Source of the DNA: an uncultured Rikenellaceae bacterium
GTDB lineage: Bacteria; Bacteroidota; Bacteroidia; Bacteroidales; VadinHA17
Reading direction: 5' to 3'
DNA: 64,000 nucleotides
Assembly: GCA_964634565.1 (NCBI GenBank)
Contig: CAZWLP010000001.1
Span: 29,146-93,145, forward strand
The notes under the pieces are model-generated. The model was not told the origin of the DNA. It worked only from the letters and a program-made list of their open reading frames with translations, and ran no database searches. Within the stretch, counting starts at the first letter, position 1; every line of letters starts with the position of its first letter. Made by a program: the position numbers and the translations under genes. Of the stretch, positions 9,938 through 54,949 are shown piece after piece.

Positions 9938-11323
9938 ATGACTGAAGATTTTTTCCAGGGATATAAAGGAGAAGCACTTAAGACTCTTAAGAAATACCGT
10001 GTAAGGGTATGGGGACAAACCGAAATTGATACCAGCAGGGGAACCTTTACTGGCACTGTGTTGCCAAGATCAGAAAATGACGACGACCTTCATATAGTTT
10101 TAAAAATAGAAACAGGATATAATATTGGTATTGATGTCGGCACAATAATAGGGATGAAAGAAACAGGCTATCAAAAAGCCAATTATAAGATCCCGGAAAA
10201 AGAATTTCCATATTCAGACAATAAGCCGTCGATTAAACTATTTGGCACCGGTGGGACTATTGCTTCAAGACTGGATTACAGGACGGGAGCTGTTATCCCG
10301 GCATTTTCGCCCGGAGAGCTCTATGGTGCTGTTCCTGAGCTTGCAGATATTTGTAATATCGACACCGAAAAACTTTTTGCAGTATTCAGTGAAAACATGG
10401 GCCCCGAACAGTATATTACACTGGCAAAGGCTATAGGAAAGGAAATAGAAAACGGCATTGATGGAATTGTAATAGGCCATGGCACAGATACACTGCACCA
10501 TACTGCTGCTGCATTATCATTTATGGTACAGGATCCGCCGGTACCAATTATACTCGTCGGATCACAAAGATCATCAGACAGACCCTCTTCAGATGCAGCC
10601 CTAAATCTTATCCATGCCTCCTGGGCAGCATCACATGGCGATATTGCCGAAGTACTTGTCTGTATGTTCGGACCAACCAGCGACGAGTATGGCTTTCTTC
10701 ACCGAGGAACCAGAGTACGTAAGATGCATAGTTCCTACAGATCAACATTCAGAACGATTGGTGATACCCCGGTTGCAACTATTACAAAAGAAGGAATTAA
10801 GCATATAAAGAAGAATTATAATCAAAGGAGAAAAGATAAGAAAGTAACTATACTGCCATATTTCTCTGAAAAAGTAAGTATGCTATATTATTATCCTCAT
10901 ATGCAGCCTGAAATTCTGGATAATCTTGTAGATCTGGGATATAAGGGCATTATTATTGTTGGCACAGGTCTCGGACATGTGAACCGGGAACTTTACCCCG
11001 CCCTGAAAAGAGCAAAGGATAAAGGTGTTTCCGTCTTTATGACCCTGCAAACCATATGGGGTTATGTTCATATGTTTGTTTACGAAACAGGACGCGATAT
11101 GATGGCCCTGGGAGTTACTCCCCTGGGTAATATGCTTCCCGAGGTAGCATGGGTAAAACTGGGCTGGGCCATGGGCCAGACTGAAGATCAGGAGGAAATT
11201 AAAAGAATAATGTTATCACCTGTTAATCAAGAGATCACAGAACGTGAGCCCTATAATGGTTATCTGGTATACCAGGGAGGGGTGCCCGAAGTCGAAAATT
11301 TTGTCAGAAGGTTCCATAAGTAA
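9938..11323 (+). CDS. gatD: Glu-tRNA(Gln) amidotransferase subunit GatD (asparaginase-fold glutaminase)
   Basis: GatD-type N-terminal domain (GTVLPRSE...IVLKIETGYNIGI), TGGTIASRLDYRTGAV, HGTDT, GSQRSSDRPSSDA, RVRKMHSS, MLPEVAWVKLGW. Starts 2 nt after the gatE stop. Confidence 0.93.
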   Translation: MTEDFFQGYKGEALKTLKKYRVRVWGQTEIDTSRGTFTGTVLPRSENDDDLHIVLKIETGYNIGIDVGTIIGMKETGYQKANYKIPEKEFPYSDNKPSIKLFGTGGTIASRLDYRTGAVIPAFSPGELYGAVPELADICNIDTEKLFAVFSENMGPEQYITLAKAIGKEIENGIDGIVIGHGTDTLHHTAAALSFMVQDPPVPIILVGSQRSSDRPSSDAALNLIHASWAASHGDIAEVLVCMFGPTSDEYGFLHRGTRVRKMHSSYRSTFRTIGDTPVATITKEGIKHIKKNYNQRRKDKKVTILPYFSEKVSMLYYYPHMQPEILDNLVDLGYKGIIIVGTGLGHVNRELYPALKRAKDKGVSVFMTLQTIWGYVHMFVYETGRDMMALGVTPLGNMLPEVAWVKLGWAMGQTEDQEEIKRIMLSPVNQEITEREPYNGYLVYQGGVPEVENFVRRFHK

Positions 11324-11389
11324 GTAATAATATACCTAAAATAGTATAACAATTTCTTCTATATTTGACTGTTCAGAAAAAGAGCGATA

Positions 11390-12007
11390 ATGATAGTATA
11401 TTTTCTAACCGGATTGGCAGCAAGTTCTCTGCATGTTGTTTCAGGACCTGACCACCTGGCAGCTGTTACCCCACTGGCGATTGAAAATAAAAAAAAGTCA
11501 TGGCTTGTCGGATTTACATGGGGGCTGGGCCATACATTGGGAGTGATAATTATCGGCATATTGTTTATTCTCTTCCGGGATCTGATACCCGTTGAAACAA
11601 TATCTGCCTATAGTGAACAGATGGTTGGCATACTTTTGATAATTATTGGTCTCTGGATCTTCTATAGAATTTTTTCAAACAAACCACACAAAAACTTCAA
11701 ACCAAAAAGAGATGATGCATGGACTGCACTGAGTATTGGTATTATACACGGAGTTGCAGGCGTAAGCCATCTTATTGGCATATTGCCAAGCCTTGCACTG
11801 CCTACCAGGGCTGATTCGGTTTCATATATTCTTGGCTTCAGTGTAGGTACAATAATCACCATGGTCGCATATTCCGCAATTATGGGCATGGTATCTCACA
11901 GAGCGACAAAAAATGATCATAGGAAATTATTACTTGGCATCAGAATAGCAGGAAGCACAGTTGCGATTCTTGTAGGTATTTTCTGGATCTTCCAGTCTTC
12001 CCATTAA
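11390..12007 (+). CDS. NicO/UreH/SodT-like Ni/Co permease (6 TM)
   Basis: LHVVSGPDH, WGLGH and GIIHGVAG..H motifs; hydrophobic helices. Confidence 0.7.
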   Translation: MIVYFLTGLAASSLHVVSGPDHLAAVTPLAIENKKKSWLVGFTWGLGHTLGVIIIGILFILFRDLIPVETISAYSEQMVGILLIIIGLWIFYRIFSNKPHKNFKPKRDDAWTALSIGIIHGVAGVSHLIGILPSLALPTRADSVSYILGFSVGTIITMVAYSAIMGMVSHRATKNDHRKLLLGIRIAGSTVAILVGIFWIFQSSH

Positions 12008-12039
12008 TCAAAGCAATAAATTACTTTAATTAACCAAAG

Positions 12040-46355: not shown

Positions 46356-47600
46356 ATGATTAAATCTATCAAGAAAACAATAGGCCTGCTGGCAATAATA
46401 AGTATACTTACTCTCAGCGCATGCGACAGAGAGCCAATACCTCCGCCACAACCCAGGATCGAACAAATCTCAATTGCAGATCTGAAAGCTATGCACCAGG
46501 GAAGTACAGTGGTAATTGATTCGGCTGTTTTTATCCAGGGAATTGTTACCCTTACTCCCGAGAAAAACAATATTCCTGATTTTGTAGGTTATATGCAGGA
46601 CGAAACTGGCGGTATTACCTTAACAGTTGATGGCAATAATAACCTTTCAGAAGGCTCCGAGATAAAGATTTTTTGCGAAGGAATTGAGCTGTCTGATTAC
46701 AATGGACTTCTCCAATTTGGAAATATAGACCTTGGGACACAATCCGAGCTGATAAGTATCTCTGCCGACCCCATCACCCCGGTTAGTGTAACTATCCAGG
46801 ATATACTTGATGGTGAGCATATTGCTGAACTGGTTTCTATAAGTGGAGTAGAATTCTCTGATAAAGGAAGCTTCTCGGGTAGTCAGACGCTTACAAACTG
46901 CTCGGAGGAAATTGCTGTTTACACAAGATCGGATGCAACATTCTCCGGAGATATTATGCCCGAAGGAAATGGAACTTTTGTTGGGGTAGCTTCTGTATAT
47001 AACGATGCTCAGCTGCTGATGAGAGATCCTGCAGATCTGGATATGACAGGTACAAGATGTGAGCCTTTCTTTGAAGGAATCTTCCAGGAAAATTTTAGTT
47101 CGCTATCCTATTTAGATCCTGTCACCGTTATAGATGGTTGGATAAGCAGTTTGCAAGAAGGTGATAGGGAATGGGCAGGAAATAATTACCTCGAAAACAA
47201 ATACGTCCAGGCAACTGCGCATGGTTCCGGTCTTGCCAGTATGATCGCATGGATGATTACCCCTTCAATTGATCTGTCAAATTCTATAAACCCTGTATTT
47301 TCGTTTGATAGTAAGCTTGGTTATCCAAATGGTGCAACTCTGGATGTTTTTATCTCATCAGACTACGATGGCTCTGCGAATCCATGGAATTATACCTGGA
47401 CAGCTCTTAATCCAACTCTGCCAACGGAGGTCATTCCTGGCTCAAATTATTCAGACTGGTTATCGTCGGGTAATATTGATCTGTCAGCCTATAGTTCAAC
47501 CATATATATAGCATTTGTTTATACAGGTAGTGATGGAGCAAGCAAGCAAACAACAACCTGGCAGATTGATAATGTAATTATTGACGAAAGCAGTAAATGA
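46356..47600 (+). CDS. Second DUF5689-like lipoprotein, paralogue of the upstream gene
   Basis: Lipobox LSAC; IQGIVT, QDETGGI, AELVSI.GVEF, F....MPEGNGTF.G, C-terminal WQIDNV. Confidence 0.75.
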   Translation: MIKSIKKTIGLLAIISILTLSACDREPIPPPQPRIEQISIADLKAMHQGSTVVIDSAVFIQGIVTLTPEKNNIPDFVGYMQDETGGITLTVDGNNNLSEGSEIKIFCEGIELSDYNGLLQFGNIDLGTQSELISISADPITPVSVTIQDILDGEHIAELVSISGVEFSDKGSFSGSQTLTNCSEEIAVYTRSDATFSGDIMPEGNGTFVGVASVYNDAQLLMRDPADLDMTGTRCEPFFEGIFQENFSSLSYLDPVTVIDGWISSLQEGDREWAGNNYLENKYVQATAHGSGLASMIAWMITPSIDLSNSINPVFSFDSKLGYPNGATLDVFISSDYDGSANPWNYTWTALNPTLPTEVIPGSNYSDWLSSGNIDLSAYSSTIYIAFVYTGSDGASKQTTTWQIDNVIIDESSK

Positions 47601-48676
47601 ATAATATAAGGTTTATTTCAACCTTATTCCTCTCTGTTTTTATAACAGGATATCTCGGGGCCCAGGCTCCGTCAGGGTATTATAATTCAGCTGCAGGATT
47701 AACGGGTACCACGCTTCAGCAGGCACTGCATGATATTATCGACAATCATACTGTACTAAGCTATACTCCGGGTCTCTGGGATGCCGTAAAGTCAACTGAT
47801 GCCAGGGGCGATGGAACAGTCTGGGACATGTATTCCGACAATCCTTCAGGAATTAATCCTTACAATTACACCTTTGTTACCGACCAGTGCGGTAGTACAG
47901 GCTATAATTCTGAATCAGACTGTTACAACCGGGAGCACTCCTTCCCAAAAAGCTGGTTTGACGATTCATCACCGATGTATACCGACCTTAATCATATCTT
48001 TCCGACCGACGGATATGTTAACAGCAAGAGAAGCAATTATGCCTTTGGTGAAACAAACAGTCCTTCGTGGACATCTCAGAACGGAAGTAAAGTGGGACCC
48101 TCTTCTGTTTCAGGGTTTTCAGGAACAATATTTGAACCTATTGATGAATACAAAGGTGATTTTGCCAGAACACATCTTTATATGGCTGTAAGGTACTACG
48201 GTGAGGATTCTTCCTGGCCGGGAGGAGATATGACAGATGGCGCACAGCCAAAAGAATGGGCTCTGGATATGCTCCTGATATGGCATAAGGATGATCCTGT
48301 AAGTCAGAAAGAAAAAGACCGTAATAACCAGATATATAGTCTCCAGGATAATCGTAATCCATTTATCGATGATCCCTCTTTTGCAGAAAAAATCTGGAGC
48401 GCCACAGGGATAAGCAATAAGAAGATTGAAACAGACGAAGATCTGAAAATCTACCCTAACCCCGCAGGTGAAGAGCTTCGATTCACAATAAATGAAAATA
48501 TAGATTCAGAGTTAAGCATTCAGATCTGCTCCTTAACGGGATCAGTAATTAAATATCTTTCAATAAAATCCACATCCGAAAACCATATTAATATCCAATC
48601 CCTCGAAAAAGGATCATATATTTTACTTATCAGGACCGGAAATAATATCTACAGAAGTCGTTTTATTAAATTATAA
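47597..48676 (+). CDS. Endonuclease I family nuclease with T9SS type-A C-terminal sorting domain
   Basis: YNREHSFPKSW, DLNHIFP, NSKRSN, KGDFAR, RNPFID; CTD IYPNP...GSYILLI...FIK. Confidence 0.9.
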   Translation: MNNIRFISTLFLSVFITGYLGAQAPSGYYNSAAGLTGTTLQQALHDIIDNHTVLSYTPGLWDAVKSTDARGDGTVWDMYSDNPSGINPYNYTFVTDQCGSTGYNSESDCYNREHSFPKSWFDDSSPMYTDLNHIFPTDGYVNSKRSNYAFGETNSPSWTSQNGSKVGPSSVSGFSGTIFEPIDEYKGDFARTHLYMAVRYYGEDSSWPGGDMTDGAQPKEWALDMLLIWHKDDPVSQKEKDRNNQIYSLQDNRNPFIDDPSFAEKIWSATGISNKKIETDEDLKIYPNPAGEELRFTINENIDSELSIQICSLTGSVIKYLSIKSTSENHINIQSLEKGSYILLIRTGNNIYRSRFIKL

Positions 48677-48689
48677 AACCCTTTTTTAC

Positions 48690-48775
48690 CACGCAGAGCG
48701 TGATCTTCGCTTCGCTCCGACTTTTTACTTTTTCCCTTCCCGGTTTCTGGTTTCCTGTTTCCGGTTTCCTGTTCC
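48690..48775. repeat. Hairpin plus heptamer-periodic tract
   Basis: CACGC-AGA-GCGTG (48690-48702), (ACTTTTT)x2 at 48720-48733, then six CGGTTTC-like heptamers. Confidence 0.75.
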
Positions 48776-48870
48776 CACTTCATATAAACATATCTAGAGT
48801 GATAAATATGATCTTTTTTTTATAAGGATTTTTTTCTTATTTTATGGCTCAAATCCTAAAGCTAATTACT

Positions 48871-49233
48871 ATGAAATATCTAAGTATTATATCAATTATT
48901 TTCTTGCTGGCCATTTCGTGCCAGAACAACGAATCCCAGAAGGCTGATGCCAAAGAAACTGTAGCTACTGAGCTTGAAGCTCCGGTGGATTATGTTGAGT
49001 ATAGTGTTAGTATTGAAGGCATGACCTGTACAGGATGTGAAGAGACTATTGAAGCAGGAGTTACAAAGATAGAAGGAGTAGGATCTGTTGAAGCTAATTT
49101 TACAGATGGAAAGGCCATTCTTCAATTTGATAAAAACAATATCGACACCCTGGAGGTAAAAAATGTAATTGAAGCTGCAGGTTATAAAGTTGTGTCATTT
49201 AATAAGGTTCCTGATTCTGCAATAGCAGAATAA
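48871..49233 (+). CDS. Heavy-metal-associated (HMA, MerP/CopZ-like) lipoprotein
   Basis: Lipobox AISC; GMTCTGCE metal loop; IEAAGY. Likely ATG 48871 (track: 48844). Confidence 0.88.
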   Translation: MKYLSIISIIFLLAISCQNNESQKADAKETVATELEAPVDYVEYSVSIEGMTCTGCEETIEAGVTKIEGVGSVEANFTDGKAILQFDKNNIDTLEVKNVIEAAGYKVVSFNKVPDSAIAE

Positions 49234-49257
49234 GCTCTGGAAGATATCTGATAATAC

Positions 49258-50238
49258 ATGGAAGAAGAAAAAAAGAATCAATCAAAGCGGCCAGGAGAAG
49301 AGAAAGATCCGGAGAAAAGCTCCAGACGTGATTTTATGAAATCGGTTGGCCTTGTTGGTGCGGCAGCAATAACAGGCGGAGCAGCAATATATTCAGGCTA
49401 TAAACACGAAAAGTCGAAGGGACCAAAAGAAACTGTGAGGGTACTAACCGAAGACAATCGATTGGTTGAGATACCGGTTGATCAGATTGAGGAAGTAGCC
49501 TCATCCCTTAAAGTATTACAAACCAGGGGACGTGAAGGTATAGCCGGACGCAGGTGGGTTATGGTTATCGACCTGGCAAAGTGCCGTAATGCAAGGCAGT
49601 GTGTTAACGCCTGCCAGTCGGCTCACGGACTAAGACCTTATGAGTATCATATCAATACTCTTGCAATGCAGGAGAATGAGACATCGGCTCCGTATTTTAT
49701 GCCGAAACCATGTCAGCATTGCGATAATCCACCCTGCGTAGCTGTCTGCCCTGTCGATGCCACATACAAGAGACAGGACGGGATAGTATTAATTGATAAT
49801 GAAAGATGCATTGGATGCCGCTTCTGTATTGCTGCCTGCCCCTACTCAGCCAGAATGTTTCACTGGGAACAACCAAAAGAGATTGATATAAGCGAAGATA
49901 CCGTCTACGATGTTGAACTCAATATCCCTCAAAGGAAGGGTACTGTTACAAAGTGCCTGTTCAGCGCCGACAGGGTAAGAGAGGGAAAATTGCCATATTG
50001 CGTATCTGCCTGCCCTAACGGGGTCTTTTATTTTGGTGACGAAAATGAAGATGCTGTAACTAATGGCACAACTAAAGAGACTGTTCGGCTGAGTCAGCTT
50101 CTGGAAGATAATGCAGGCTACCGTCTTATGCCTGAACTGGGAACTCAACCAAGGGTATACTACCTGCCTCCAAAGAATCGTCTTTTCGATTTTCCAGATG
50201 ATCAGGGCCCGGACAATATCGATAACAAACATGTTTAA
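49258..50238 (+). CDS. Tat-exported 4Fe-4S dicluster protein (NrfC/DmsB/QrcC-like)
   Basis: SRRDFMK twin-arginine signal; CQHCDNPPCVAVCP and CIGCRFCIAACP intact; motifs I and IV each lack one Cys; ends GTQPRVYY. Confidence 0.9.
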   Translation: MEEEKKNQSKRPGEEKDPEKSSRRDFMKSVGLVGAAAITGGAAIYSGYKHEKSKGPKETVRVLTEDNRLVEIPVDQIEEVASSLKVLQTRGREGIAGRRWVMVIDLAKCRNARQCVNACQSAHGLRPYEYHINTLAMQENETSAPYFMPKPCQHCDNPPCVAVCPVDATYKRQDGIVLIDNERCIGCRFCIAACPYSARMFHWEQPKEIDISEDTVYDVELNIPQRKGTVTKCLFSADRVREGKLPYCVSACPNGVFYFGDENEDAVTNGTTKETVRLSQLLEDNAGYRLMPELGTQPRVYYLPPKNRLFDFPDDQGPDNIDNKHV

Positions 50239-50254
50239 TTTGTGAATTTATTAT

Positions 50255-51601
50255 ATGTCAGATTCAGATAAAAAATTCCTTGCCCGGCCCGAAGTAATTG
50301 ATAAGGTGTCTTCTGACCTGCTCAGGCCGGTAAGGCTAAACAGGAGCTTCGTGCTCTGGATGATGCTGCTTGGCGTATCTCTTGTTCTATGCCTCTATGC
50401 TTACTCGATACAGCTCAAAAAAGGTCTGATTGTAACCGGCATGCGTGATTATATAAGCTGGGGTATGTATATAGCCAACTTTGTATTTTTTGTTGCTACA
50501 AGTCTTGTTGGTATGCTTATAAGCGCAGTACTGGGACTGATTGGTTATTCATGGGTAAAACCAATTGCAAGGATTGCCGAAATTATTGCAGTAGCTTTTG
50601 CAGCCATCGCAGGTATTGTAATTATCTCTGATATGGGTCGCCCCGAAAGATTGCCATTTTTATTCTTGCACGGCCGCATTCAGTCACCCATCCTATGGGA
50701 TGTAACTGTTGTAACAACCTATTTTGTTATCAGTCTGCTGCTTTATTTCCTCCCCCTGATTCCCGATCTGGCAATAGCCCGTAATCGTTTAATCGGAGCT
50801 CCGGTATGGTTGCAAAAGGTATATAAAATCCTTTCCTTAAGATGGGTACATAAGAACAGTCAGTACAAAATTATTATAAAATCCATCCGCATACTGCTTA
50901 TCCTGATTATCCCGACTGCCTTTGCCATTCATACAGTTACATCATGGCTCTTCGCTGTTACAACACGCGCAGGATGGGACAGTACAATATTTGGCCCCTA
51001 CTTCCTTACCGGGGCCTTTGTTGCCGGAAGTGCGGCAGTGATTATCGCTATGTTCTTTTTCAGAAATAGTTACAGGCTTAAAGACTACCTTACAGATATG
51101 CATTTTGATAAGATGTCTAAGCTGCTTGTTCTTGTTGCAATTGTTTACCTCTATTTTAATATTAACGAATTTCTGGTACCGGCATATAAGCTAAAGAAAT
51201 TTGATGCCGTGCATATACATGCTTTATTCAGTGGCCATTATGCCTTACTTTTCTGGGGCACTCAACTACTGGGTCTTATTATTCCAACTATCTTACTGCT
51301 ATTTAAACCCTTACGCAAACCTCTGCCTGCTACCATCATTTCTGTTTTTGTTATTATTGGCAGCTGGCTAAAGCGATATATAATTGTTGTACCAACACAG
51401 GAACATCCTTTCCTTCCAATACAACACGTACCAGGTGAATGGTTTGTATATAAACCAACTCTTATTGAGACAGCAATAACCATGGGATCGATAATTCTGG
51501 TACTTATAATTATTAGTGTCCTCTCAAAAATCTTTCCTGTAATACCTATCTGGGAAATGGCAGAGGAAAGAGAAAAAGAATTAAGAGATAAAGAGAGATA
51601 A
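50255..51601 (+). CDS. NrfD/PsrC-family quinol-binding membrane subunit
   Basis: WGMYIANFVF, DMGRPER, SPILWD, HTVTSW, FGPYF; about 10 TM. Confidence 0.9.
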   Translation: MSDSDKKFLARPEVIDKVSSDLLRPVRLNRSFVLWMMLLGVSLVLCLYAYSIQLKKGLIVTGMRDYISWGMYIANFVFFVATSLVGMLISAVLGLIGYSWVKPIARIAEIIAVAFAAIAGIVIISDMGRPERLPFLFLHGRIQSPILWDVTVVTTYFVISLLLYFLPLIPDLAIARNRLIGAPVWLQKVYKILSLRWVHKNSQYKIIIKSIRILLILIIPTAFAIHTVTSWLFAVTTRAGWDSTIFGPYFLTGAFVAGSAAVIIAMFFFRNSYRLKDYLTDMHFDKMSKLLVLVAIVYLYFNINEFLVPAYKLKKFDAVHIHALFSGHYALLFWGTQLLGLIIPTILLLFKPLRKPLPATIISVFVIIGSWLKRYIIVVPTQEHPFLPIQHVPGEWFVYKPTLIETAITMGSIILVLIIISVLSKIFPVIPIWEMAEEREKELRDKER

Positions 51602-51616
51602 TACAAAAACCAGGCA

Positions 51617-52516
51617 ATGAGATATAAACTATTAATATTATTAATCTTATTAGGACAGCAGATTGTTTTAGCCCAGAAATGGGAAGTCCCCCAGGACAGA
51701 AGCGACAAACTCTCTACTTTTGAATTTACTGATGCCACAAGAAATGCAGGTGAAGCTATCTATTCTCTCGACTGTAAATCATGTCATGGAAATCCCGGCA
51801 AGGGTAACTACCAGTCCCTTAACCCAATACCAGGAGATCCGGCAACAGAAAAGATACAGATTAACAGTGATGGTGCCCTTCATTATAAGATAAGTGAAGG
51901 AAGAGGACTGATGCCATCGTTTAAAAGGATTTTATCTCCGGATGATATCTGGAATGTTATATCCTTCCTCAGAAGCTTTAACCCCGACTATAAACAGGTG
52001 TTTGCAACAGCAAGCAAACTAACTAACCTGAAGTGGTCGGAGATTAAGATCATGGTTGATCTTATTGAAGAGAAACATCAGCTTGTTGCAAAACTTATCG
52101 GACTGGAAGGAGATAAATGGACTCCTGTTACTGACACTGAATTAAGGTTAACGGCAAAAAGATATTTTGGAACCATAGCTATTGACGATCCAAAGATATC
52201 TGATAGCAAAGGCGAAGCTATATTTGATGTTTCCGGTGATTTGCCCGGAAATAGCGAAGGTGGAATTGAGCTTACTGTTCAGCTAACAGATTTAGAATTA
52301 TTCGGAGACCTTAAAAAAGATACAATACTGATTATCGGGATCGCTTCCCTGGCACCGCCATTAAATAAGGAAAGAGCAATGTGGAACATTAACAGGAAGG
52401 CCCCTGTCTGGCTGATATTAGCATATTCAGCAGTTTTGCTAACAGTATGGTGCTTTATATTTTATGTCCTGTTCAGGCTCAGGACCATTCACAAGGAAGG
52501 AGAAGACGAAGAATAA
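51617..52516 (+). CDS. Monoheme cytochrome c with extra beta domain and C-terminal membrane anchor
   Basis: Signal peptide (VLA-Q), CKSCH, distal Met in GRGLMPSF, C-terminal TM helix. Confidence 0.85.
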   Translation: MRYKLLILLILLGQQIVLAQKWEVPQDRSDKLSTFEFTDATRNAGEAIYSLDCKSCHGNPGKGNYQSLNPIPGDPATEKIQINSDGALHYKISEGRGLMPSFKRILSPDDIWNVISFLRSFNPDYKQVFATASKLTNLKWSEIKIMVDLIEEKHQLVAKLIGLEGDKWTPVTDTELRLTAKRYFGTIAIDDPKISDSKGEAIFDVSGDLPGNSEGGIELTVQLTDLELFGDLKKDTILIIGIASLAPPLNKERAMWNINRKAPVWLILAYSAVLLTVWCFIFYVLFRLRTIHKEGEDEE

Positions 52517-52534
52517 TATTTCTTATATGCAACT

Positions 52535-54949
52535 CTACCTGATAAAATTCAGGTCCATATTCTCTTCCTGAGCCCTTTGCCTGTAATTGTTGAAATTATA
52601 TGTAAATGTAAGAGTAACAACCTGTGATTCGGGTTGCATTGAAGTTATCGTAAGGTAGTCTTCTCCTCGTATTTCGTTCTCCATTACAAATGTCTTGAAC
52701 AGGTCTCTTACACTTAGAGCAAGAGAAGCCTTTCTTTTTAACAACTCCTGACGTACACCAAAATTAAACATATACGATTCCTTACGCGATCCCTGGAGGG
52801 TAATCGATGGTCCGTTATAAATTGCAGATAATGTAAGTCGTGTACTTTTTGTAGGAAGAAAAACTGAAGTAAAGTTTGCTGTCCACACAAAACTGCTATT
52901 ATCATTTTCTTCGTAAAACGTATCATCCTCAAGTACATAATAATAAAAGTTACCCGTAGTTATCACTCTAAGCCACTGTGCAGGCTGAATATTTGCCATC
53001 AGTTCGGTTCCTGCTGAATGTGACCTGTTGGCATTTACAAAGTGCTGATGCATAACACCATCATCCTCAGGTGTAAGGATGTTGGTCATAAGATCATTTA
53101 CCATCCTGTAATAAGCCTCTGCAGAAACAAAACCCATCTTTACCTGATTCTGGTAGGCCAGCTCGTAGGAGTCGATAAATTCAGGTCTTATATCAGGACT
53201 GCCACTTACAATAAGCTGGTTGTCGGCATACTGCCTTACCGGGTTAAGTTGCTGACGTCCCGGCCTGTTAATCCGCCTGCTATAGCTTAGCTGCAATTGC
53301 TGGTTATCTTTAAATTTCCTGGTAATATTAGCGCTTGGAAATACATTAAATTTCGAATAGGAGTACTCTGTTGAGCTGTCGACCTGCTCAAGAATCCTGT
53401 CGGTATATTCATTTCTTAAGCCCAGCTGGTAATTAAACTTTCCAAGGTCTCCACCCCAGGTAAGGTAAACTGCATAAATAGTCCTGTCTAGTTGAAACTC
53501 ATTACTTAATGCCGCGTCCTCAACCCAGGTTCCACCCGGAAGCACATAATCTTCGTGTACCTGGTCATTATTTTCAAGCAGCCTGCGATACTGGTATCCA
53601 AGCTCCAGTTTCCCTTTCCCTTCAAAGCTATTTTCATAGTCTGTCTTTAACCGTATATCATTAATATCCATTGCATTATTTAGTCTCCTGCGATCTGTAA
53701 AAACACCTGTAGGCTGCCAGCTGGCATCCATGGCTTCCTCAGACAGTCCCTGGATAAGATTACCCTGAAAGCCACCTACAAACATGCTGGTCTGCATTTT
53801 GCTACCCTCCTTCTTAAACTTATGATCCCAGGTAATATCTGGCATATAGAATGTACCATTTACCTGCAGGTCGTTAGAAAAATTGAAATTACCTGTTAAG
53901 ACCGGATCTGTTACTGTCCGGACTATTTCATTATCAACCAGGGCATTAATATCCTGGGGACCAAATCGTCCTGACAGACTGATACTATTACGCTCGTTAA
54001 TGCTATAATCCATTCCAAGGTTCCCTACCAAGGTGTTTATTTTTGCAGACTGCCCAAAACCGTTTGTTATCTCGCTCTCATTCCCTGGTGCTGAGGTTTC
54101 GCGAAAGATACTCCCGCTTACATCCGTATTATAACTTGTACCTGTTACACCTGCAAACATATTTACTTTCCCCTTACGATAATTAAATTGAGCATCCCCA
54201 TTATACTTATCCCTCAGTCCTGCCATCAATGAAATCTGACCATTAAGACCTGCCTCAGTCTGCTTTTTCAGAACCAGATTAATTATTCCTGTAACTCCAT
54301 CCGGATCGTATTTTGCAGAAGGGTTAGTCATTATCTCAATATCCTCAACCATCTCAGGTGGTATCTGCCGAAGCATATTAATCCCTACTCCCGGCACCGG
54401 TTTCCCGTCGATCAAAAGAGTATAATTTCCACTACCCCTCAGTAAGACATTACCCTCGGCATCAAGTGTAACAGACGGGGCATTTTCGAGTACCTCCGAG
54501 AGAGTAGAGGCACCTGCGTCCTGAAACTCCTTCACCTTCAGTATCTTCTTATTATCACGGTATACTATCTGTGGTTTTACTGCAACAACACTTACACTGC
54601 CCAGGTCTTCAGCTGCTTCAACAAGTGCGATATCGCCCACATCAAAAACAGGATCATCATCAGACAGGCTGAAGCTAAAGCTTTTTGCCATATATCCGAC
54701 AAATGTAGCAGTGAGCGTGTACACTCCTGCCGGCAAATCACTAATAATAAATTCTCCATTAAGGTCAGTGGCAGCCCCGGTTATTATCGACGAATCTGGC
54801 TGACTGTATACTGCTATCGTTGCATTCTCAATAGTAGTTGCGTTTATCCCGTCAATCACCCGCCCTTTAACCTGTCCTGATAATACAGGCCTGGCAATCA
54901 TGGGAGGAATCAAAAATATTGAAATAAATAAAATAATTACCCTTTTCAT
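52535..54949 (-). CDS. TonB-dependent / outer-membrane beta-barrel protein with N-terminal carboxypeptidase-like domain
   Basis: GRVID...IENATI, LENAPSV, LIDGKP, TNPSAKYD..G..GIIN, YSRRINRP, C-terminal FTYNFN. Confidence 0.85.
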   Translation of the reverse strand: MKRVIILFISIFLIPPMIARPVLSGQVKGRVIDGINATTIENATIAVYSQPDSSIITGAATDLNGEFIISDLPAGVYTLTATFVGYMAKSFSFSLSDDDPVFDVGDIALVEAAEDLGSVSVVAVKPQIVYRDNKKILKVKEFQDAGASTLSEVLENAPSVTLDAEGNVLLRGSGNYTLLIDGKPVPGVGINMLRQIPPEMVEDIEIMTNPSAKYDPDGVTGIINLVLKKQTEAGLNGQISLMAGLRDKYNGDAQFNYRKGKVNMFAGVTGTSYNTDVSGSIFRETSAPGNESEITNGFGQSAKINTLVGNLGMDYSINERNSISLSGRFGPQDINALVDNEIVRTVTDPVLTGNFNFSNDLQVNGTFYMPDITWDHKFKKEGSKMQTSMFVGGFQGNLIQGLSEEAMDASWQPTGVFTDRRRLNNAMDINDIRLKTDYENSFEGKGKLELGYQYRRLLENNDQVHEDYVLPGGTWVEDAALSNEFQLDRTIYAVYLTWGGDLGKFNYQLGLRNEYTDRILEQVDSSTEYSYSKFNVFPSANITRKFKDNQQLQLSYSRRINRPGRQQLNPVRQYADNQLIVSGSPDIRPEFIDSYELAYQNQVKMGFVSAEAYYRMVNDLMTNILTPEDDGVMHQHFVNANRSHSAGTELMANIQPAQWLRVITTGNFYYYVLEDDTFYEENDNSSFVWTANFTSVFLPTKSTRLTLSAIYNGPSITLQGSRKESYMFNFGVRQELLKRKASLALSVRDLFKTFVMENEIRGEDYLTITSMQPESQVVTLTFTYNFNNYRQRAQEENMDLNFIR

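Follow-up and report, generated by a model that had tools for sequence, protein, structure and literature searches.

A putative three-subunit quinol:cytochrome c oxidoreductase without its oxidase genes in an uncultured Rikenellaceae bacterium

The links between quinol and cytochrome c oxidases are thought to be bc1/b6f complexes or alternative complex III (ACIII), the latter with six to seven subunits. The present study concerns a four-gene cluster in a 64,000-nucleotide stretch of DNA from an uncultured Rikenellaceae bacterium (hereafter the window), in which a gene for a putative metal-binding lipoprotein is followed by a trio of genes for an iron-sulfur (Fe-S) protein, a NrfD-like membrane protein and an anchored cytochrome c. 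A review of the NrfD family grouped ActC and ActF of ACIII together with DsrP, gave the quinone-site residue as Asp in DsrP and QrcD and as His139 in ActC, and described no minimal module of NrfCD with a monohaem cytochrome (PMC8076601). NrfCD pairs without a molybdopterin subunit have been proposed to reduce periplasmic multihaem cytochromes in Melioribacter roseus (Mros1571-1572, PMC3534657) and in MBNT15 (PMC9386147). In the literature covered, outside of which lie the subscription journals, no description was found of such a trio as an ACIII substitute ahead of caa3 or cbb3 oxidases. Comparison with related genomes suggests, at a probability of about 0.78, that a respiratory operon of some ten genes, known from Bacteroidales, survives here as its upstream half only, with the trio as the quinol feeder of a cytochrome c oxidase that has been deleted. 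What is new is the orphaned state of the feeder without its oxidase.

The four co-oriented open reading frames (ORFs) of the cluster lie on the + strand and, in window numbering, encode an HMA-domain lipoprotein of 120 aa (48871..49233; PF00403, lipobox LLAISC, motif GMTCTGC), a Tat-exported Fe-S subunit of the four-cluster, NrfC/DsrO-like type with 326 aa (49258..50238; Fer4_11, twin-arginine motif), an integral membrane protein of 448 aa that is NrfD-like and resembles the long ActC/DsrP kind (50255..51601; PF03916, DMGRP), and a monohaem class I cytochrome c of 299 aa with a C-terminal transmembrane (TM) helix (51617..52516; PF13442/PF00034, CKSCH). The gaps between them are 24, 16 and 15 nt in gene order, and no molybdopterin subunit, hydrogenase, multihaem cytochrome or oxidase is encoded within the cluster. 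The first-pass annotation of the window had reported the same four genes with spacings of 15-24 nt, the DMGRP motif in the NrfD protein and the lack of these partners, and for the window cluster it was right on each point. The gene order is kept in 80 related loci and is therefore not a chance arrangement.

More than 7,500 relatives of the NrfD protein are present in the protein database, the best 120 of which are all at least 68% identical to it. The neighbourhood survey covered 80 loci of Bacteroidales/Marinilabiliales, including Marinilabilia, Labilibacter, Saccharicrinis and Geofilum. The Fe-S gene stands upstream of the NrfD gene in 62 of 69 loci, and the cytochrome gene adjoins it in 70 of 78. 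Downstream of the trio, a haem-copper oxidase subunit I was found in 60 of the 66 loci with at least 4.5 kb of downstream flank. The usual downstream order is an optional DoxX-like protein, SCO1, CoxI, CoxIII, CoxIV, CoxII fused to cytochrome c, and CtaB, for which the corresponding Pfam matches were SCO1, COX1 (PF00115, 490.8 bits), COX3, COX4_pro, COX2 with cytochrome c, and UbiA/CtaB, a UbiA-family haem O synthase. Three loci have a cbb3 operon instead, with a CcoNO fusion, CcoP, CcoG and CcoH. The six loci without a downstream oxidase all belong to one Prolixibacteraceae/Tangfeifania sub-clade of NrfD-cytochrome pairs, which has no adjacent Fe-S gene. The NrfD-cytochrome c pairs of Prolixibacteraceae/Tangfeifania (loci L014-L017, L020, L021 and L054), with neither an oxidase nor an Fe-S gene beside them, adjoin a divergently transcribed ORF of about 975 aa upstream of NrfD; this ORF was considered as an ActB and rejected, being unrelated to the module and similar by eye, without a domain search, to FAD/Fe-S oxidoreductases. 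The earlier proposal of an unknown periplasmic acceptor is thus replaced, for the family, by a cytochrome c oxidase encoded directly downstream (caa3, or cbb3 in the three loci). The lack of a catalytic subunit, which had been put forward as a feature of the module, is true of the window genome and not of its relatives; indeed, the observation named in advance as fatal to a stand-alone module, that homologues are always accompanied by a catalytic subunit, was largely borne out by the survey.

The slot of the trio ahead of the oxidase genes is shared with ACIII. Genuine ACIII operons of other Bacteroidota encode ActA (189-219 aa with five CxxCH motifs), ActB (about 1,000 aa), ActC, a 379-aa monohaem protein, ActF and a 313-aa monohaem protein, and behind them stands an oxidase block of identical order, with CoxI 62-64% identical. 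Because the same ordered block lies downstream of each, the trio occupies the operon slot of ActABCDEF. Neither the window cluster nor the set of 80 related loci has a multihaem ORF corresponding to the pentahaem ActA, and each module locus has one NrfD-family gene only, without a second NrfD-like subunit of the ActF kind. In Saccharicrinis sp. FJH62, Geofilum rubicundum and the metagenome-assembled genome (MAG) L010, the module is accompanied by caa3, while neither a full-length ActB nor a bc1-type cytochrome b was found in these three. In an order-wide sample, the module was called at E <= 1e-130 in 27 of 151 genomes; among the 26 carriers besides the window genome, a strong oxidase of A-type or cbb3-type is present in 23, and it often lies less than about 3 kb away. 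One carrier, G420, has the trio followed by non-oxidase genes, and no oxidase match was found in its genome. In another, G443, a ten-gene module plus caa3 operon (L154, G443:C7, 5151-13912) is apparently pseudogenised, with an N-terminally truncated NrfD and with the cytochrome and CoxI each split in two, although sequencing error is possible.

In the window genome (G000, a 94.8%-complete draft of 189 contigs), one deletion of about 5.1 kb took exactly SCO1, CoxI, CoxIII, CoxIV, CoxII and CtaB. The nearest relatives, G553 of the same genus (NrfD 93% identical) and L010 of Marinilabiliaceae (NrfD 90% identical), have the window's flanking genes on both sides as well as the 5.1-kb oxidase block. 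By blastn, window 47648-52521 corresponds to L010 5456-10267 and window 52536-54490 to L010 15386-17340, and the breakpoints relative to G553 are identical (9847 and 14960 of L166); the site of the block, about 5.1 kb and six genes in the relatives, is thus reduced to 14 unaligned bp in the window. The junction falls in an 18-nt spacer (52517..52534, no strand) between the stop codon of the cytochrome gene and that of the next gene, a TonB-dependent receptor convergent to the cluster (52535-54949). Six independently assembled contigs from ENA, JGI and Logan contain the junction, and their identity of 99.95-100% to the window points to a single population. The first-pass annotation had suggested searching the rest of the genome for a terminal reductase as partner of the module; the assembly has retained no cytochrome c oxidase. 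In tblastn searches of this genome, SCO1, A-type CoxI, CoxIII, CoxIV, CoxII, CtaB, CcoP and CcoG gave no match, and a CcoNO query yielded a single match, weak and partial (33% over 97 aa), to a divergent haem-copper protein on contig C2.

Each of three states of module and oxidase is found within the genus, in which G551, G553 and G554 have the module with the adjacent oxidase, G552 has neither and the window genome has the module only. Locus L147 (ENA ERZ4787356 NODE_37, 10268-12036), about 90% nucleotide-identical to L010, has undergone separate deletions with breakpoints unlike those of the window: the stretch from the 3' part of SCO1 to the 5' part of CoxII was lost, then CtaB, then an internal part of the TonB receptor, leaving a 184-aa CoxII fragment, while all four module genes stayed intact. 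This loss appears recent, because the similarity of the remnants to L010 (90%) is about that of the intact genes.

The NrfD-like subunit matches PF03916 at 112 bits against a gathering cut-off of 25.8, which places it in the NrfD/PsrC superfamily, and among solved structures it matches ActC subunits alone (E 1e-43 to 1e-49), 8k9e_C being the best (E 8.5e-49), followed by 6lod_C, 6f0k_C and 6btm_C. Its presumed quinol site would consist of Asp126, Ser144 and Asp149, as judged from residue conservation. At position 126, the Asp of DMGRP, all 21 module proteins and all 6 DsrP have Asp, all 14 ActC have His and the 11 ActF have a hydrophobic residue, which bears out the earlier annotation, and the statement of PMC8076601, that ActC has His at this position. 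Ser144 and Asp149 are each invariant in the 21 module, 6 DsrP and 14 ActC proteins and variable in the 11 ActF, so that the non-quinone subunit ActF has lost the Ser and Asp of the quinone site, and the position of ActC Asp253 is Leu in module and DsrP proteins and Asp in ActC and ActF. Ser144 and Asp126 agree with the quinone-site positions listed in PMC8076601.

A maximum-likelihood tree (LG+G4) was built from 60 sequences, comprising 21 module, 14 ActC (two of them from solved Chloroflexota structures), 11 ActF and 6 DsrP proteins together with the window genome's own paralogues. DsrP was recovered from 53 Bacteroidota genomes, presumably Chlorobia, and the 6 DsrP of the tree presumably come from Chlorobia too. 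The module NrfD proteins form their own clade (support 100/99), whose sister is a pair of L141 paralogue-cluster proteins (100/99); together they join a group of the window genome's C8 paralogue, L140 and ActC plus ActF at 98/91. The ActC clade (100/99) excludes the module, and DsrP falls outside all these groups (100/99). Forcing the module and ActC into one clade costs 79 log-likelihood units and is rejected by the approximately unbiased (AU) test (p-AU 8.2e-5). Nesting inside ActC or QrcD had been foreseen as a second way in which the earlier idea might fail; the ActC part of it is rejected by this test, and for QrcD, a family outside the tree, the NCBIfam score was 63.4 bits against a cut-off of 570. 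As a side observation, G355 and G295, members of class Bacteroidia outside the family that holds most DsrP matches (presumably Chlorobiaceae), have DsrP at 419-426 bits, above the cut-off, which hints at Dsr-type sulfur metabolism within Bacteroidia.

The Fe-S subunit carries Fer4_11 (84 bits) and the twin-arginine motif SRRDFMKSVG, with a weak TAT_signal match. Its best solved relatives are PsrB (108.6 bits) and ArrB, the C-terminal domain of ActB scoring 57-74 bits, and the alignment of the 326-aa protein with ActB is confined to about residues 780-1017 of the latter. Of the features of CISM-type four-cluster ferredoxins (NrfC/PsrB/DmsB), it keeps the fold and unaltered motifs II and III. 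Motif I reads CxxAxxCxxxC, in which the second Cys is replaced by Ala as in the C8 and L141 paralogues, while in motif IV (CxxS) the second Cys is replaced by Ser, a change specific to the module clade; both replacements are conserved across the clade. ActB, by contrast, lacks the second Cys of motif III, and because different Cys positions are lost, the cluster chemistry of the module is likely to differ from that of ACIII; the losses in motifs I and IV would predict a [3Fe-4S] cluster or a missing one.

The cytochrome subunit has a signal peptide, a single CKSCH at residues 53-57 that is invariant in 51 homologous sequences, a PF13442 match of 41.5 bits and a C-terminal hydrophobic helix. 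An AlphaFold model from the 51 homologues (mean pLDDT 88) predicts a haem domain at about residues 26-120, a flexible linker at 132-137, a beta-sandwich stalk at 142-239 and a TM helix at 264-298. With a single CxxCH, a confidently modelled cytochrome c fold and predicted periplasmic export, the protein is a class I c-type cytochrome. The best Foldseek match of the model is ActE of the Roseiflexus ACIII (6lod_E, E 1e-5), with c552/c6 cytochromes matching about equally, and the haem domain resembles small c552/c6 cytochromes in the search of solved structures. The stalk domain had no Pfam match, and Foldseek gave only generic Ig-like folds for it. Homologues of the stalk and helix are a protein of 295 aa without haem in the C8 paralogue cluster (E 1e-12) and the anchor proteins of L141, each of which is followed by a separate small monohaem cytochrome. 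Because of these haem-less stalk-anchors, the conserved core appears to be Fe-S protein, NrfD and stalk-anchor, onto which the cytochrome has been fused in the module clade. Moreover, NrfD-cytochrome c fusions of about 760 aa exist among the homologues.

The HMA lipoprotein matches PF00403 at 45.7 bits, while all its matches to CopZ/MerP-type NCBIfam models fall under their respective cut-offs. Its gene is found upstream in 29 of 69 related loci, thus at the head of the operon in about 40% of them, and is absent from the other 40. The protein is probably a copper chaperone of the periplasm. Most plausibly the gene belongs with SCO1 and would have a copper chaperone role in oxidase assembly. 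The metal-linked acceptor that had been considered on account of this gene finds little room here, with HMA in under half of the loci and cytochrome c oxidase as the acceptor in the family.

From these data, the three proteins of the trio would form a quinol:cytochrome c oxidoreductase, doing the job of ACIII or bc1 for the oxidase encoded directly downstream. Quinol, presumably menaquinol, would be oxidized at a P-side site in the NrfD-like subunit, and electrons would reach the single haem c by the chain of iron-sulfur clusters in the Tat-exported subunit. The haem domain, tethered to the complex by the beta-sandwich stalk and the TM helix, may then reduce the CuA/cytochrome c entry of the caa3 oxidase, or the cbb3 entry in some lineages, while the HMA lipoprotein and SCO1 would probably deliver copper for oxidase assembly. 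An oxidoreductase of three subunits, simpler than complex III, had already been proposed in the first-pass annotation, and it fits the operon context, the gene fusions, the conserved quinone-site residues and the phylogeny. Several points weigh against this reading. Electron direction, quinone type and partner are all read from genes and their neighbours; the Fe-S subunit is nearer to DsrO/PsrB than to ActB and is two cysteines short (motifs I and IV); and Marinilabilia also has cytochrome b and Labilibacter both ActB and cytochrome b. Because some carriers have ACIII and/or cytochrome b as well, the module is not always the sole route to the oxidase. In addition, MenA (TIGR00751) was not detected in the window genome or its congeners G551-G554, in searches that did not take in the futalosine pathway. 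Because it went undetected in all four congeners too, this absence is uninformative about the window genome specifically, and it could be accounted for by a divergent prenyltransferase, by the futalosine route or by quinone auxotrophy; quinone-dependent enzymes are present despite it (cytochrome bd, Psr and NrfD paralogues). A last point against is that constraint on the trio has not relaxed after the loss of the oxidase, which is unlike a pure relic unless the deletion is very young.

This constraint was examined with G553 as sister and L147/L010 as outgroup. The ratio dN/dS was 0.045 for the Fe-S gene, 0.052 for NrfD, 0.097 for the cytochrome and 0.186 for HMA, the least constrained of the four. 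Amino-acid changes on the window branch against the G553 branch numbered 15 and 12 for the Fe-S protein, 14 and 14 for NrfD and 8 and 17 for the cytochrome, or 37 and 43 for the three together, compared with 146 and 90 in six flanking control genes. For HMA the counts were 12 and 5, which is not significant, and with L010 as the comparison the asymmetry was 16 against 3. Neutral decay over the whole branch would, by a rough estimate, give some 600-700 changes in the 1,073 core residues. The feeder genes are intact and constrained as in the oxidase-bearing sister, without relaxed constraint. Because the changes are far below the neutral expectation, either the time since the deletion is only the final few per cent of the branch or selection still acts on the module. 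Two neighbouring genes evolved significantly faster on the window branch, namely the TonB-dependent receptor mentioned above (33 changes against 8 in G553) and the second DUF5689 lipoprotein (46356-47600; 53 against 26).

Other electron-transfer genes of the window genome comprise a cytochrome bd quinol oxidase, a Psr-type molybdoenzyme and two further NrfC/NrfD pairs. The paralogous module on C8 (3276-10904) encodes an Fe-S protein of 320 aa, a NrfD of 436 aa that is 98% identical between congeners and the haem-less stalk-anchor of 295 aa, together with a cytochrome b561, a multihaem c7/c3-like cytochrome with a TM helix, a DUF5777 outer-membrane barrel and a small haem lipoprotein. Divergent from it are genes for an MtrC/MtrF-like multihaem lipoprotein with a collagen-like N-terminus and for a regulator that is Crp/Fnr-like by eye, without a domain search. 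This cluster looks like a periplasmic or extracellular electron-output system. It is adjoined by CcsBA (C8:2-2356), truncated at the contig end; loss of cytochrome c maturation, considered after PF01578 gave no match in the genome, was rejected on finding this gene. The fourth pair (C55:13712-17693; NrfC 318 aa, NrfD 440 aa) is flanked, again by eye without a domain search, by two glycine-cleavage H-like proteins, a sensor kinase with a haem motif and a sigma-54-type response regulator, and its NrfD groups in the tree with L126 and L139, away from the ActC/DsrP set. The sole COX1-family match of the genome (C2:84954-87178) is a divergent 541-aa protein (PF00115, 183 bits), whose top NCBIfam match, CtaD at 99 bits, falls under the cut-off of 670. 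Its partner of 190 aa is cupredoxin-like and subunit II-like, with S-T-E-Y-S in place of the CuA cysteines. The 541-aa protein may be a nitric oxide-handling enzyme of an unclassified family, and it adjoins an Rrf2-like regulator and genes that are hemerythrin-like by eye, without a domain search.

Other explanations of the cluster were weighed against the reading as a truncated respiratory operon. A self-contained minimal quinol-oxidizing module with an unknown periplasmic acceptor, possibly a metal handled by the HMA protein, would agree with the lack of a catalytic gene in the window cluster and with a co-transcribed HMA gene, as judged by the 24-nt spacing; it is nevertheless very unlikely, given the oxidase directly downstream in 60 of 66 related loci, the occurrence of HMA in a minority of loci and together with SCO1 and copper-containing oxidases, and a partner whose absence is a datable deletion relative to G553 and L010. 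More improbable again is a DsrOP- or Qrc-type module working in reverse, as a cytochrome c:quinone reductase of sulfur or hydrogen metabolism. The top NCBIfam models are indeed DsrO for the Fe-S protein (188.7 bits) and DsrP for the NrfD protein (122.6 bits), and at the quinone site the residues follow the DsrP pattern (Asp, Ser, Asp, Leu), but these scores are under the cut-offs of 200 and 350, QrcC (118.3 bits against 400) and QrcD are further below theirs, true DsrP is a separate clade outside the group of module and ActC/F, neither dsrMKJ nor qrcAB accompanies the module at any of the 80 loci, and the operon partners are O2 reductases. That the missing oxidase is an artefact of assembly or binning can be given almost no weight. 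The genome is a draft, and another seeming absence, that of CcsBA, proved to be a contig-end truncation; the junction, however, lies inside a 98.8-kb contig and recurs in the six contigs from three assembly sources, the flanks on both sides align base-for-base to relatives across the breakpoint, and none of the six oxidase genes is found elsewhere in the genome.

A more serious alternative, although still an unlikely one, is that the module is no relic here and that selection keeps quinol electrons flowing to a non-oxidase acceptor, for which the multihaem cytochrome/DUF5777 porin cluster on C8 and the atypical haem-copper enzyme on C2 are the candidates. The low dN/dS and the lack of excess change on the oxidase-less branch are consistent with such rewiring, and so are the second deletion in L147, which with different breakpoints again spared all four genes, the trio of G420 in a genome without an oxidase match, and the presence of CcsBA and of several periplasmic multihaem cytochromes in the window genome. 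Against it, no candidate acceptor adjoins the module, CCP, NosZ and NrfA were not found in the window genome, and the subunit II of the C2 enzyme is without CuA cysteines. G552 has lost module and oxidase and the G443 operon decays as a whole, which suggests that the module is dispensable without an oxidase, and a very recent deletion accounts for the same selection data. A recent orphan is therefore weighted somewhat above a rewired module. Slightly more doubtful still is the broader idea that the trio is a portable plug-in menaquinol dehydrogenase, kept because its tethered cytochrome c feeds another, unrecognized acceptor, such as the multihaem/porin cluster on C8 or the CuA-less haem-copper enzyme on C2.

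In some cultured species the trio is the only visible route to caa3. If confirmed as a quinol:cytochrome c oxidoreductase, it would be the simplest known analogue of complex III and a tractable model of NrfD-type coupling of quinol oxidation to energy conservation. Species of one genus with the full operon, with the feeder only (by two independent deletions) and with neither constitute a natural experiment on the dismantling of aerobic respiration in anaerobe-leaning Bacteroidales, and those without an oxidase allow an oxidase-independent role of the feeder to be tested; were the module rewired, a three-subunit substitute for complex III would have been caught on its way to anaerobic electron output. 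The locus is also a warning, in that the seeming lack of a catalytic partner was a deletion revealed only by comparison with relatives.

Among known systems, ACIII is the most similar, as represented by the structures of Rhodothermus marinus (6F0K), Flavobacterium johnsoniae (6BTM) and Roseiflexus (6LOD), and by 8K9E. Common to both are the operon slot upstream of SCO1-CoxI-III-IV-II-CtaB, a membrane subunit whose closest solved relatives are ActC, a periplasmic Fe-S part of the four-cluster type, a monohaem cytochrome with ActE as top fold match, and the putative role of a quinol:cytochrome c oxidoreductase feeding caa3. The module differs from ACIII in having three subunits instead of six or seven, without the pentahaem ActA, ActF, ActD or the molybdopterin-like B1 domain of ActB, which consists of B1 and the Fe-S domain B2. 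Its NrfD lies outside the ActC plus ActF clade and has Asp instead of His at the quinone site and Leu for ActC Asp253, its Fe-S subunit has lost cysteines of other motifs than ActB has, and its cytochrome bears the beta-sandwich stalk and C-terminal helix. The oxidase linkage itself, general in the relatives, is missing from the window. DsrMKJOP resembles the module in its top curated models, quinone-site residues and long-type membrane subunit, and differs in the sub-threshold scores, the separate and more distant DsrP clade, and the DsrMKJ partners, in place of which the module has O2 reductases as genomic partners. The NrfCD pairs of Melioribacter and MBNT15, of which kind the C8 paralogue cluster of the window genome is, likewise combine an Fe-S protein with NrfD, have no molybdopterin subunit and are read as quinol dehydrogenases for c-type cytochromes; the module differs from them by its dedicated, tethered monohaem cytochrome and by a caa3 or cbb3 operon partner instead of multihaem cytochromes. 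Taken together, its genes point to an uncharacterised family that would work like ACIII and yet falls outside ACIII, DsrOP and Qrc.

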